A stretch of DNA of 64,000 bases from Euglena gracilis. Taxonomy: Eukaryota. Location of the stretch: contig CP154954.1 in NCBI GenBank assembly GCA_039621445.1, forward strand, positions 22,456,954 through 22,520,953. Reading direction: 5' to 3'. A program made the translations under genes and the position numbers. Below, one piece after another: positions 173 to 59,849 of this stretch (the first letter of the stretch is position 1; every line of letters begins with the position of its first letter). Under the pieces are notes generated by a model. It had not been told where the DNA came from and ran no database searches. It was given only the letters and a program-made list of their open reading frames with translations.

Positions 173-3100
173 CGGCTGGGAGATGTCTGTCTGGGCTGGG
201 ATGGCTGTCCAGCTGGGAGACTGTCTGGAAGAAAGGTGCTGGCTGGCAGGACCCCCTGAGGGCAGCATCCCCTCGCCTTGAGAAAACACCTGCTCCTGAG
301 ACCACCCTAATCACCCACCCCGGATTTGCCTTCCCCTGAAAGCAAACCCGCTAAAATTAAAAAGCAATTTTGCACTTGGGATGGTTTCTTTGGACAAAAA
401 AAAACAATTTTGACTTCACACCCTTGCCCGTCCAGAGTGCTTTTGCCCTCAACTGAGTGGTGGTTGGCCCTTTAGCCCAAGCCCGCTGCGCAACCCACAG
501 AAAGTGCCCAGGTGGGGCGTTGCAGGTCGAGTCAAGGGGGAGAGAGGCAGAGCTGTACACCGCATAACGTTCCTGGGCACTTGCAAAGCAGGTGCCCAAC
601 AGAGACGGGGATTGAGCAGGGCTGTATGGGACGGTCTGGGGGGTTGGCTGTCCCATCCAGAGGAGGAGGGTCACTTCAAAAACCAGTCAGTCACTTCCTA
701 CACCCCCTCACGGGGGGGGGGGGTTGGCCACTTTGGCTCCAACAAACTTTCCGGTGCCCTCGGCGCTGGGTGGCCACTTTTAGCCAATCCTGGCCAACCC
801 CACCCCCGGGGGTGGGTTGGAGCCAAAAACCAAAACCAGTCAGTCATTCCAAAAATAACAACAACCAGTCAGTCACCCCCCGAGAGGGGGTGGGGTTGGA
901 CACACCTCAAGCAATGGTGTGGGCCGGACCGGCGGAAGACACCGTTACTGTAAAATCGGTGCCCCTGCAAAACGGGAAGGGGGTGGTGGGGTCGGACCTC
1001 CACCACCACCACCTGTTGGTTTCCGGGATTCCCATTCAGCCCTGGAGAAGGAGGAGGGGGACGGCGGGGACGTGAGGCTTTACGCGGGGCGGCTTTCCCG
1101 GCGGAGGCAGGGCGGCGCCACCCTGGCACTGCCACCCACCACGGAGGGTTTTATTTTTGCACCTCCCATCACACCATCAGCATAATGTCTCAACCTTGTG
1201 CATTTTCAACGCAACAACAGAATCTGATGTGCCACTGGGGGTGCACCGCCCTGCTTGGAGCCTTGGAGGCGTGGGCTTGCAGGGCAGGGACACAGACAGG
1301 GTGGAGGGAGCCCTGCCTGAACCTCATGGGTCTTCCTCTGATACGCCTATAGGCTGCCAACCAATTGGGGGGCACATTAGGAAATGCCCCCCAACAGGCC
1401 CTTGCTCCCCACCCCCGAAAAAGCCCCATCTGGGGGTGTGCTGGGCTTCTGCCCCGACCCTGCTCGCAATGATGCGGCTGTCCCATTCGGGGCGGGGGGT
1501 CTGGGGCGGGGACCGGAGGCGCGGCGTGCGGTCACCACCGCGCGGCGTGCGGTGGACGGCCGACGCTGCGGCAGCCGCGAGGGCGGCGGCCGCCAGCGCA
1601 GCGGTGGTGGCGGCGGCCACGACAGTGGGGACGTCGGGGTCGCCGGACGGGTGCAGGACGACGAAGGACCCCAGGAAACCTGGAGCAAAGGATGCGGGCT
1701 GGCTCACACCAGAGGCAGGCTGGCTGCCAGGCAACCTGTGCCCCCCCTCCTGTGCCTGCCTAGGCCCTGGGGGTGACAGGGATATGGCACAAAGCAGTCT
1801 CGGCAGGGAAGAGCCCTGTGCCACACGGTCACACGTGACATATGTGACATGGCTTGATGCGGGAAAAACGCCGGGCGAAACGTCACCAGACCAGGGCAGT
1901 GGTGGTGGCCAGAACGCCCCATTACGCCGGTTGCATCTTCTTTGACCTCTGTTCCTGCTTTCGTCGCAGTCGGTCGCCGCTGGTTGCCACAGCCAAAACA
2001 AACTGCTGCCCCGGATCTGGAGCAACAAGAATGCTGCTTCATTGTTTCCCTCCGCAACCCGATCCTTTTGGTCACTGAGCCTTTTTGAAATGTCAGAATG
2101 GGAGCCCAATGGAAAAATGGAGCAGGGGATTGGAATTCGGTTATGTGGGGGGGGGGGCTTGACACACACCTCCGATGGTTGCCTCCAAATCCAAGAGACC
2201 AGAGTCCCATGCATCAGTTGTCCCTGAAGGGGAACAATGTCCAAGCACCCGTTGCCGTCCTTTCAAATCGGAAAACGACAGGGGGGAAAGCGAACAACTG
2301 GAAAATGCAATAAAAATGCAGCAAGTCCAAGAAACGAGGCAGAGTGAATGCAAAAAGGCACCGCCCTCCGTGCATCATCGTAAAGGTTAGTGGGGAGAAT
2401 ATGCAACAAGGCACCTCAAAATGCGCAATGCAAAACAATGGAAAAGAATAAAAAAGGCAAGTTGCATGAAAACTCCTAAAAACCTCCCGGGGATGTACAT
2501 CCTTTTGCCAAAGAGCATTTACAAAAATTTTCGCAAGAGAAAACTTGTTACAGAAAAAAATGTATAACACAAAAAATGCGCAAAATAAAACCATGAGCAA
2601 AAAATGCACAAAATGTGCGAAGAATGTGCATTCGCCTGAAAATCACAAAAATACACAACAAAATGTGTGAAAATGAGGAAAACACGGCGCATTTCCCCCT
2701 GTCTACAAAAACAAACCAAACATGAAAGTGCAAATCCCCCTCACTTAAATGCATGGGGTGTGCACATTATCGGACCGAAGTTTCGAATCCTCAGGTGTGT
2801 GACATTTATTTGGGCACTACCCGAAAGCAGTTCAACGTAAAATGGCTTTTTGAGGGGTGCTTTTTTTTGGATTCACTTTCAGACCCTTGGGGGAGCATTG
2901 TGCACCATTTGGGCACTGCGCATTGGAATGGGGGGTTTACCCCCCCCCCCCCCAGGGGTCAACCACCCGGCCAGCCCACCCAACATTCAGCCAAAGTCGG
3001 CCGAAAGCCCTTGAAAAATTTTCCGCCCCGGCCTCTGGCCGGACCAAAATGCGACCCATGGCACACAGCCCGCCCCCCTTGGGATGGGGGTAGGGGTTTT

Positions 3101-58600: not shown

Positions 58601-59849
58601 CACACACACACACACACACAACACACACACACACACAACACAACACAACACAACACAACACAACGCACACACACAACGCACACACACACACACACCACAC
58701 ACACACACACACAACGCACACACACACACACACACACACACACACACACACACCACACACACACACACACACACACACACACGCAACACACAACAAACGC
58801 ACACCGCTTAGGCTGAACACTTGATCGCTGTCGGTGGCCTTGCCCAGCGCCGGGCATCCGGCGTACTTCTGCTGGGCGGGCAGCACGCGGGTCTGGCGGG
58901 CCACCTCCGCCTTGAGGTGGGCCACGGTGGCGGAGGCGGGCAGCGTTAGGAGGGCCCCGCCCGCGGCGGCGCATCTCACCGACGCCAAGAGAGTTGGCGG
59001 GGGACTTCCACACATTTTGGTGAAAAGAAAACCTGGCCCCGTGGCGGGTGTGTGACAAGGTTGCTGGCATGTGCTTGGCAGGGCGCACTGATGGCACGGT
59101 GAAGAAGTCGGGGACGCCGCAAACACACACACACACACACACACACACACACACACACACACACACACACACACACACACACACACACACACACACACAC
59201 ACACACACACACACACACAGACACAGAGAGAGAGAGAGAGAGAGAGAGAGAGAGAGACCCCCACCCCCGGGAGGGTGACGCAGAGCTCGTTTGTAACGGT
59301 CTGCACCACACAGACAAGAGCGGTCGGGGACGAGGGTTGGCAGGGTCGTCACCCCTGACGATGCCCCACCTGCCAGCCTGGGGCGAAACCGCAACACAGA
59401 CTGACAACACACGCGCCCACACCGACTGACAACACACTTCCCCCACAAGTACACACTCTCGGGTCGGCAAGGAGTTCCCCCCAAGGAGTTCCCCCAGCAA
59501 CACCGATTCAGAAGAGAGAGAGAGAGAGAGAGAGAGAGAGAGAGAGAGAGAGAGAGAGAGAGAGAGAGAGAGAGAGAGAGAGAGAGAGAGAGAGAGAGAG
59601 AGAGAGAGAGAGACAAATGCTACAAAAAGTGGACGCAAATCAATGGTTGGGTTAATTGGATGAAGCAAAACCGGCAGAAAGCCGTTGCTCTCCATCCCAT
59701 GAACTTACCAAATGCAGCCCATGCCACATGCCCCATTGGAAAAGAAAGAACCCCGGGGGAGCTCTCTCAGCACCTGTCGGCAGGGCCCTCATCACGATGT
59801 CGTACTGTGCTTTATTCCACTTCACCACCACCGAGGACGAAGCAGCCAT
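43630..59849 (-). CDS. Multi-exon gene: N-terminal ubiquitin-like domain (UBLCP1-type), coiled coil, UFD1-like domain, PPC-like beta domain, C-terminal TRAF-type zinc fingers
   Basis: Manual exons, 5' to 3': 59794-59849, 58805-58944, 57510-57587, 56975-57125, (small unresolved exon near 56850-56870), 56434-56476, 56037-56051, 55883-55995, 54963-55065, 54502-54600, 54056-54094, 53647-53759, 52706-52849, 52182-52253, 51959-52034, 50748-50794, ~49819-49939, 48833-48918, ~48437-48493, 47643-47708, 47215-47235, 46119-46194, 45819-45915, 45162-45242, 43630-43797 (TGA). Most junctions are GT-AG with matching phase. [42 protein letters not shown]...[15 protein letters not shown]1-like: [13 protein letters not shown]...[13 protein letters not shown]...YAQLQP...[12 protein letters not shown]...[12 protein letters not shown]. 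Zinc fingers: CPNCQRRVP...[15 protein letters not shown]...[16 protein letters not shown]...[15 protein letters not shown]. Confidence 0.85.
44070..44416. mobile_element. hAT-like MITE (CARGGTTCGAC family)
   Basis: TIR CAAGGTTCGACA / TGTCGAACCCTG. Perfect 8-bp TSD GTGCCACC. Confidence 0.85.
46195..47214 (-). other. Probable nonconventional intron whose removal creates the first Cys of CPNC
   Basis: ACA T|GAAAGTT...AACCGCATG|GC CCC AAC gives DST-CPNCQRR. GTT/AAC and TGAACG/CGTTCA pair. Without splicing, the upstream exon runs into TGA. Confidence 0.6.
46290..47174. mobile_element. TIR element with (GGTATGGGG)n subterminal arrays
   Basis: Perfect 26-bp inverted repeat ATGGCACAAAGTGGGGCCCCCATACC at both ends. 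The terminal AT may be a 2-bp TSD. Superfamily unclear. Confidence 0.8.
49940..50747 (-). other. Probable nonconventional intron in the UBL-UFD1 gene
   Basis: Boundaries C|GCCGGGGCCGCTGTTG ... CAACGGCGACCCTGCCAT|G. The ends pair and there is no nearby AG acceptor. Confidence 0.55.
51280..51501. mobile_element. MITE (CAGGCTGTTTTTT family); a truncated copy lies at about 14045-14305
   Basis: TIR CAGGCTGTTTTTT / AAAAAACAGCCTG. Only GGGA is duplicated at the flanks. Confidence 0.7.
51959..54600 (-). CDS. Exons encoding the UFD1-like (UT3-type) domain of the 43630-59849 gene
   Basis: Six exons join in phase. By eye they match UFD1 motifs (IIMPPSAL, THCGVLEF, FQPQS, LENALR, CLTTGDVIAI, AVSIIECD). 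Confidence 0.85.
53089..53529. mobile_element. hAT-like MITE (CAGGGGTTTT family)
   Basis: TIR CAGGGGTTTTCT / AGAAAACCCCCG. Perfect 8-bp TSD CATACAAC. Confidence 0.88.
58945..59793 (-). other. Nonconventional (non-GT-AG, stem-closed) intron 1 of the UBL-UFD1 gene
   Basis: Boundaries T|GATGAGGGCCCTGCC ... GGCGGGGCCCTCCTAAC|G. Positions +4..+15 pair with -6..-17 (one G-U). Removal restores the UBL sequence YDIV-LPASATV. Confidence 0.85.
59513..59613. repeat. (GA)n microsatellite inside nonconventional intron 1
   Basis: Directly visible. Confidence 0.95.

Follow-up and report, generated by a model that had tools for sequence, protein, structure and literature searches.

The nonconventional introns of euglenids, which make up ~72% of all introns in Euglena agilis (PMC12501133), were proposed in 2013 to derive from elements resembling MITEs (i.e., miniature inverted-repeat transposable elements), at a time when, according to the authors, no transposable elements were known in euglenids (PMC3935182; this and all other papers cited here are represented by parts of their open-access main texts). 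The same origin has since been invoked repeatedly (PMC4770533, PMC6221363, PMC11282704, PMC12621601, PMC12501133), with one of these studies describing repeats at intron junctions as "TSD-like", i.e., resembling target site duplications (TSDs) (PMC11282704), and both the origin of the introns and the rule of their 3-nt and 5-nt spacers were still called open in 2018 (PMC6221363), 2024 (PMC11282704), and 2025 (PMC12501133). Here, we analyze a stretch of 64,000 nt of the Euglena gracilis genome (assembly GCA_039621445.1, contig CP154954.1, positions 22,456,954 to 22,520,953 of the forward strand; henceforth the window) that holds both MITEs with 8-bp TSDs and nonconventional introns. The original prediction for this DNA, made from the sequence alone, had rightly noted that a transposon origin was already under discussion and had gone on to name the MITEs of the window as the actual source of such introns.

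The published splicing code of nonconventional introns reads N3-CDG...CH'G-N5-6 followed by a purine (R), i.e., a 3-nt spacer, CAG...CTG, a spacer of 5-6 nt, and an exon that begins with a purine, and genome-wide the CAG starts after 3 nt and the CTG lies at -8 (PMC12501133). Knock-in experiments of the same study had synthetic introns of 50 bp spliced correctly at a foreign site, for which CAG/CTG, spacers of 3 nt and 5 nt, pairing over ~12 bp, and a purine as the first exon nucleotide were sufficient. According to a review, nonconventional introns leave the RNA in circular form, with their ends at full length (PMC11282704). A strain-specific and recently gained one, intron 4 of gapC in E. 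agilis strain ACOI 323, has direct repeats of eight nucleotides at its junctions, longer than those of the other introns studied (PMC4770533, 2016).

In the window, the ends of MITEs together with their TSDs reproduce this layout, and the geometric fit between the two is exact and mechanistically meaningful. Ends of the CAG/CTG form with an 8-bp TSD are general to the hAT superfamily of DNA transposons, whose consensus has terminal inverted repeats (TIRs) starting with YARNG and a target preference for nTnnnnAn; P and Novosib superfamilies also make 8-bp TSDs. In maize, splicing of the hAT element Ds uses cryptic spliceosomal sites and is imprecise. Its splicing as a de novo intron was reportedly described in 1994 by Giroux et al. 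Maize Ds is thus a precedent for the removal of an exonic hAT insertion from RNA, whereas the euglenid geometry would instead restore the target exactly. Another related system are the introners of Micromonas, dinoflagellates, and Fritillaria, where a DNA transposon in an exon brings signals for its own precise removal in the form of TIRs and TSDs (PMC11282704). Introners form near-identical families that occupy many genes as introns and are removed by the spliceosome, whereas in the window no family member is an intron and the removal of MITEs would use the nonspliceosomal euglenid pathway.

hAT-like MITEs and their fit to the nonconventional splicing code

At least 7 MITE copies of 4 families (A, B, C, and D) are present in the 64 kb of the window (Table 1). 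Six of them had been named in the original prediction as elements with perfect 8-bp TSDs and CAG...CTG-type termini; the former were found in 6/6 elements, but the latter held only in part given that the terminal triplets vary and are of a YAN...CTG type. A blind scan for TIRs of 12 nt with up to 2 mismatches that abut a perfect 8-bp TSD at a spacing of 60-3000 bp recovered 5 of these 6 elements, while the one at 30132 (A2) was missed because its 3 TIR mismatches exceed the threshold; visual inspection confirmed this element, which has a perfect TSD (TTTCAGAT). After filtering for low complexity, the scan yielded 8 candidates compared to 0.3 on average and no more than 2 in 40 dinucleotide-preserving shuffles, with these 8 consisting of the 5 recovered elements and 3 matches that are AT-rich repeats or unclassified. 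Other TSD lengths gave fewer matches than the 8 obtained with 8 bp (4 for 7 bp, 2 for 9 bp, and 2 for 10 bp).

The inverted ends of the MITE copies directly abut their TSDs, which are perfect in 6 of the 7 copies and match at 6/8 positions in the remaining one (A4), an older seventh copy absent from the original prediction that is ~78% identical to A1 and is found 314 nt upstream of the gene B start codon (see below). Over the 15 terminal nucleotides, 11-13 are complementary in six copies (13/14 in A4), and the TIR of element B is identical at the first 12/12 positions and at 13/14 over 14 nt. The left-end triplets of the six elements are TAG, CAG, CAT, TAA, CAA, and CAG, and the right-end triplets CTG (five times) and CCG (once); counted over five nucleotides, the ends start with CAGGG, TAGGG, CAGGC, CATGC, CAAGG, TAAGG, or CGGGG, which follows a general pattern of C/T-A-N-G-G/C. 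These short TIRs of YARNG type are consistent with the hAT superfamily. As for a target preference for nTnnnnAn, T is found at TSD position 2 in 4/7 and A at position 7 in 4/7, a sample too small to speak either way (n = 7 copies). Family A consists of four copies (A1, A2, A3, and A4) with common ends and internal sequence. Like Ac/Ds-type hAT MITEs, the elements of the window thus combine an 8-bp TSD and short TIRs with a lack of coding capacity, sizes of 107-1416 bp, several copies per family, and a paralogous empty site. The interior of element B is AT-rich, and its two open reading frames (ORFs) have no match in Pfam.

This empty site at 15704..15711 carries a single copy of the 8-mer that is duplicated around element B and is bordered on both sides by homologues of the sequences next to inserted B. 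Because these flanks meet at a single 8-mer copy in the paralogue, the insertion of B is proven, and B (1 of the 7 copies) inserted with an 8-bp target duplication. Both sites belong to a repeat unit that spans a few kb, is dispersed or arranged in tandem (13297-14035, 15580-15999, 19389-19496, 20345-21233, and 23831-24482), and includes the paralogues of the B flanks, one unit holding the insertion and another being the empty site; the units also encode four near-identical ORF pieces of 36-40 amino acids (DAPQTPTAALAEEQRAP...) on the minus strand without any Pfam match. Taken together, TSDs, inverted ends, and the empty site for B bear out the identification of these elements as hAT-like MITEs: They are genuine mobile elements, and TSD length and end motif make hAT their probable superfamily over P and Novosib, to which an 8-bp TSD would also conform.

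Three unpaired nucleotides before and five after a CAG...CTG helix add up to one 8-bp TSD, a piece of arithmetic in the original prediction that is correct and agrees with the experimentally defined code (PMC12501133). A MITE inserted in an exon would therefore be removable with its target restored, because N3 plus N5 equals 8 and fits the nonconventional splicing code. Letter by letter, the full code is present in B on both strands, in A3 on the minus strand (as a CGG-CTG variant), and in A4 on the plus strand; A3 accordingly reads N3-CGG...CTG-N5 followed by A on the minus strand, which is the sense strand of its host gene C. The other strand orientations fail the code, mostly by one letter of a terminal triplet. 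In minimum free energy (MFE) folds, the first helix pair falls at +4:-6 for B on both strands and for A3 and A4 on the minus strand, and a purine occupies position 6 of the TSD in 7/7 copies when read on the plus strand and in 4/7 when read on the minus strand. A strict CAG...CTG is intact at both ends in B and A4 only, and a strict CAG...CTG scan (TIR of at least 11/14, flank identity of at least 6/8) recovered just these two, since a mutation in a terminal triplet excludes the other copies.

Introns of two genes with transcript-derived proteins

Two genes on the minus strand could be matched to proteins of EukProt, i.e., gene A with a ubiquitin-like N-terminus (P0001; 222 amino acids, 96% identity to the query exon) and the SET-domain gene B (P0002; 413 amino acids, 100% identity to the query exon). 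These matches to transcript-derived proteins of E. gracilis mark the window as nuclear DNA of the E. gracilis type. Exons were mapped using exact 5-mer matches and tblastn, followed by enumeration of every donor/acceptor register that reproduces the transcript-derived protein. In gene A, intron 1 (59793..58945) is nonconventional while introns 2-6 each have a GT...AG register, and gene B contains 8 GT-AG introns (1, 2, 4, 5, 7, 8, 9, and 11) as well as 4 non-GT-AG introns (3, 6, 10, and 12). The 18 introns of both genes therefore comprise 13 GT-AG and 5 non-GT-AG introns, and 3 of the latter have the 3+5 layout.

These three (A_i1, B_i6, and B_i12) are among four introns of the window for which nonconventional borders with stems from +4 and -6 had been predicted, and their alignment with P0001 and P0002 upholds them. 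The fourth one (36076..35166) was rejected, as the transcript joins ...RRIPR (36296) to GAALHMSYLD... (35182) via a conventional GT...AG intron of 1113 nt with other borders (B_i11), and the upstream "exon" that had been proposed beside it falls within this intron. For the three valid introns, the proteins allow 2 (59793..58945), 6 (39027..38786), and 3 (35137..34691) registers, respectively, with the predicted +4/-6 register being among them in each case. In this register, all three have complementary ends and are followed by G, A, and G as the first nucleotide of the downstream exon. The MFE fold of A_i1 has a terminal helix of 12 bp starting from +4:-6. In B_i6 and B_i12, the short complementarity between the ends can be seen only by reading the sequence. 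In being non-GT-AG, complementary at +4/-6, and followed by a purine, these introns resemble the published nonconventional introns of euglenids (PMC12501133; Milanowski et al., PMC3935182 and PMC4770533).

The two other non-GT-AG introns, B_i10 and B_i3, deviate from the euglenid layout. B_i10 is in frame and has a strong end-to-end helix, but its spacers of 3+7 (or 5+5) make it an outlier to the published code. Near B_i3, several residues of the transcript protein deviate from those encoded in the window, which is suggestive of different alleles or strains. As a separate observation, introns 1 and 2 of gene A contain long (GT)n and (AC)n/(CA)n microsatellites (57207-57383, 59111-59277, and 58526-58804) that form inverted-repeat arms of 100-150 nt at a distance of ~1.75 kb. 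Across exon 2, these might pair with each other in the pre-mRNA.

MITE insertion and other possible explanations for nonconventional introns

In the scenario that we favor, nonautonomous hAT-like MITEs, which insert with an 8-bp target duplication, carry inverted ends, CAG-like at the start and CTG-like at the end, that could pair in RNA. A transcribed copy with its two TSDs would then present 3 unpaired nucleotides, a CAG...CTG helix, 5 unpaired nucleotides, and a purine, and a cut 3 nt before and 5 nt after the helix would remove the element together with exactly one 8-nt copy of the TSD, returning the message to its preinsertion state in either orientation of the insert. Insertion of hAT-type MITEs into exons would thus probably be a major source of nonconventional introns, and the 8-bp hAT footprint would survive as a fossil in the odd 3/5 spacing of the code. 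It is for this predicted exactness of excision in either orientation that we hold exonic hAT-MITE insertion to be a genuine source of these introns, a proposition that we regard as evenly balanced between true and false. The conversion of MITEs to introns is plausible and well motivated, with no direct instance in the window: While the MITEs, their TSDs, one insertion, three nonconventional introns of 3+5 geometry, and the full code in some MITE copies are shown, the splicing of any MITE and the descent of any window intron from the four families are inferred. That families A-D themselves founded introns is doubtful, and we consider a bolder version clearly unlikely in which the code is a hAT-shaped system of RNA-level excision, most nonconventional introns are fossil hAT-MITEs, and families A-D are still making introns. 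In this bolder version, the machinery that reads paired CAG/CTG ends might even have its ancestor, or a partner, in an end-binding protein akin to a hAT transposase. In their length, the 8-nt junction repeats of the young gapC intron closely fit the prediction of 8 bp (PMC4770533).

Several results of our analysis weigh against this scenario. On the side of the elements, most MITE copies have a 1-nt defect in one terminal triplet, and none of 36 scanned ORFs of the window contains a hAT transposase or other transposase domain detectable with Pfam (with only weak sub-threshold matches such as UFD1_N1 and zf-TRAF), which is why we judge the elements to be nonautonomous and which sets the window apart from a full hAT system with an autonomous partner. 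On the side of the introns, registers were derived from proteins and not from mRNA, so that synonymous alternatives remain; the strict CDG/CH'G code is present in B_i12 alone among the 3 confirmed 3+5 introns; the spacers of B_i10 sum up to 10 (3+7 or 5+5) and not to 8; B_i3 has no terminal helix in its MFE fold; and whole-intron MFE folds pair end to end only in A_i1 and B_i10 but not in B_i6 and B_i12.

The link between both sides is likewise without an instance in this DNA. By blastn, 0/5 non-GT-AG introns are similar to any MITE family or other sequence of the window (self matches only), i.e., they are single-copy and unrelated to the MITEs, and no intron of genes A and B, be it non-GT-AG (0/5) or GT-AG (0/13), coincides with a MITE copy of the window. 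Conversely, all 7 MITE copies are intergenic or nested in inferred GT-AG introns with none in a mapped exon, so that, unlike euglenid nonconventional introns, they are not introns of any mapped gene, and 0/7 interrupt a convincing ORF, the reading frames across "emptied" sites being of low complexity or unconvincing. The claim that these very families are the actual source of the introns is therefore left without direct backing in the window, and within the window, the comparison of introns with MITE families that had been suggested as a check came out empty. The 8-mers flanking the three valid introns do resemble each other as had been stated (5/8, 4/8, and 3/8), adding up to 12/24 identical positions or 16/32 including B_i10. 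This exceeds an offset null with a mean of 6.6/24, where 12/24 was reached by a fraction of 0.0176 and 16/32 by 0.0078 of 1024 offset pairs. However, the flanks of the 13 GT-AG introns in genes A and B are identical at 45/104 positions (43%) in the same 5+3 register, presumably due to the splice-site consensus, and 5 of the 12 nonconventional matches fall on junction positions 5 and 6 (7/18 excluding these). Because GT-AG introns of the same genes match that identity, the claimed TSD remnants are not evidence for a transposon origin, and flank identity, while above the offset null, does not stand out from this control.

The absence of MITE families from the introns and of MITEs from exons, together with a junction microhomology that is equally high in GT-AG introns, speaks for a simple coincidence. 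The window would then hold ordinary MITEs without any role in intron birth, the CAG...CTG and 3/5 spacers would be a mere requirement of the splicing machinery whose match with the hAT footprint is accidental, and introns would have other origins, be it the repair of double-strand breaks whose staggered ends are filled in or the conversion of introns that were once conventional. A total of 8 is also not strict, given that the code permits N5-6 (PMC12501133) and B_i10 reads as 3+7, and the authors of the gapC study preferred double-strand-break repair despite the 8-nt repeats (PMC4770533). It nevertheless counts against coincidence that two independent features agree, i.e., a total spacer of 8 and a CAG/CTG helix at the termini, and that MITEs are abundant and located within transcribed genes. 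Since the form of hAT ends and the 8-bp TSD are superfamily-wide, it is the code that matches the transposon and not the reverse. Moreover, the one documented young nonconventional intron has repeats of exactly 8 nt (PMC4770533). On balance, we see coincidence as a real possibility that nonetheless falls short of an even chance.

It is highly improbable that the direction was reversed, with introns coming first and the "MITEs" being excised introns that were reinserted, e.g., via circular intron RNAs. The release of nonconventional introns as circles with full-length ends (PMC11282704) and the helix motif that they have in common with MITE ends would suit such a route, but perfect 8-bp duplications of varied targets and the empty site indicate the staggered cut of a DNA transposase and not reverse splicing, the element ends abut their TSDs without any N3/N5 intron spacers carried along, and B is a 1.4-kb, AT-rich element in an intergenic position within a repeat unit. 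Chance or assembly artifacts as the origin of the TIR/TSD structures might be suspected in a homopolymer-rich and repeat-rich assembly, with many G/C homopolymer runs and microsatellites in the window and 3/8 scan matches being low-value AT-rich repeats. This reading can be set aside as having next to no probability in light of 8 observed candidates versus a shuffle mean of 0.3, four family-A copies with common ends and interior, and the direct evidence of insertion from the empty site.

For the favored origin from exonic hAT-MITE insertion, the window offers concrete candidate families for a "MITE-like" source that has been proposed since 2013 without a named element, and it turns the general hypothesis of a MITE origin into specific and testable claims. 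Among these is the quantitative prediction of a TSD of 8 = 3+5, with which a young intron from the literature already agrees through its 8-nt repeats (PMC4770533). While the MITE origin itself is already published, the link of hAT, an 8-bp TSD, or 3+5 = 8 to euglenid introns appears to be new, with no paper on it found in the parts of open-access main texts that were searched; a literature search on hAT transposases in the nuclear genome of Euglena gracilis gave 0 papers. If true, a host splicing pathway would be tuned for the exact erasure of one transposon superfamily.

Further genes and sequence features of the window

Table 1. Genes, introns, MITE copies, and the empty site in the window; intron ends are given as 3-nt spacer / paired ends / 5-nt spacer.
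Feature	Position	Strand	Description
MITE A1	3083..3408		310-bp member of family A (element 3091-3400); flanked on either side by TSD GATGGGGG; left end TAGGGGTTTT..., right end ...AAAATCCCTG
Paralogous empty site for B	15704..15711		Single GTCTGGAC; both flanks homologous to flanks of the B insertion
MITE B	17587..19018		1416 bp (element 17595-19010); TSD GTCTGGAC; TIR CAGGCACCTATAG
MITE C	28860..28982		107 bp (element 28868-28974); TSD GTGTGGCT; ends CATGCTTGTGCTTA / CAGGCTTGTGCTTA
MITE A2	30124..30262		Family A, 123 bp (element 30132-30254); TSD TTTCAGAT; 87% identity with A3 at the right end
Degenerate family-B-like copies	32667..33620		74-78% identical to left part of B; without resolved ends or TSD
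Gene B	34562..41967	-	SET-domain protein (PF00856); EG_transcript_11344 (P0002); 13 exons, 12 introns
Nonconventional intron B_i12	34691..35137	-	447 nt; second intron of the original prediction; GAC / CAGGGCT...AGCCCTG / GGCCC
Conventional GT-AG intron B_i11	35183..36295	-	1113 nt; replaces first intron of the original prediction (36076..35166)
Nonconventional intron B_i10	36401..36490	-	90 nt; helix CAGGCCGU/ACGGUCUG
Nonconventional intron B_i6	38786..39027	-	242 nt; third intron of the original prediction; AAC / CAAGC...GCTTG / ATACC
Non-GT-AG intron B_i3	40232..40717	-	486 nt; without evident terminal helix
MITE A4	42281..42552		Family A, 256 bp (element 42289-42544); flanks GGGGTGAC / GGGGCGAT, 6/8 match
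Gene C	43633..54989	-	UFD1_N1-like N-terminus and TRAF/C2H2-like zinc fingers; hosts A3 and D in introns
MITE D	44062..44424		347 bp (element 44070-44416); TSD GTGCCACC; within inferred GT-AG last intron 45161..43798 of gene C
MITE A3	53081..53537		Family A, 441 bp (element 53089-53529); TSD CATACAAC; within inferred GT-AG intron 53646..52850 of gene C
Gene A	54981..59849	-	Ubiquitin-like N-terminus; EukProt EG_transcript_28547 (P0001); 7 exons, 6 introns
Nonconventional intron A_i1	58945..59793	-	849 nt; fourth intron of the original prediction; GAT / GAGGGCCC...GGGCCCTC / CTAAC

Gene C was mapped via a 60%-identical homologue (P0003) only, so that its junctions are approximate, with those that are readable being GT-AG; a search for homologous proteins with its UFD1-like exon gave no match. 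The two MITEs nested in this gene, A3 and D, would be transcribed in sense inside introns that read as GT-AG. With its full nonconventional code in sense orientation within a conventional intron, A3 is a candidate for a nested, twintron-like substrate with a predicted junction of 53533 to 53083. At the border to gene A (54969-54989, minus strand), P0001 ends with ...RERAMEV where P0003 begins with MEVDPDA. Genes A and C may thus be one gene, give rise to a read-through transcript, or be tightly packed neighbors, and the EukProt model looks 3'-truncated.

Beyond the elements listed in Table 1, fragments resembling family C at 51295, 35503, and 42094 were not counted, as they have only an internal palindromic core in common with it and no TSD. 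Scans of metagenome contigs with one end of family A and one of family B gave 0 matches. A 198-bp candidate at 15140-15353 has a TSD (GCAAATGC) and inverted ends (GCACATAAACAT, 11/12) that are not of the CAG type, and it may represent another class of elements or chance. Directly after A1, ~3.4 kb (3449-6900) are made up almost purely of (CTG)n/(CAG)n, interrupted periodically by CGA, which creates spurious long ORFs in all frames. Finally, homopolymer runs of G or C with a length of 8-40 nt are very numerous across the window, many of them within MITEs of families A and C; these may be real or long-read noise, and they leave the TSDs and the first 12 nt of the MITE ends untouched.

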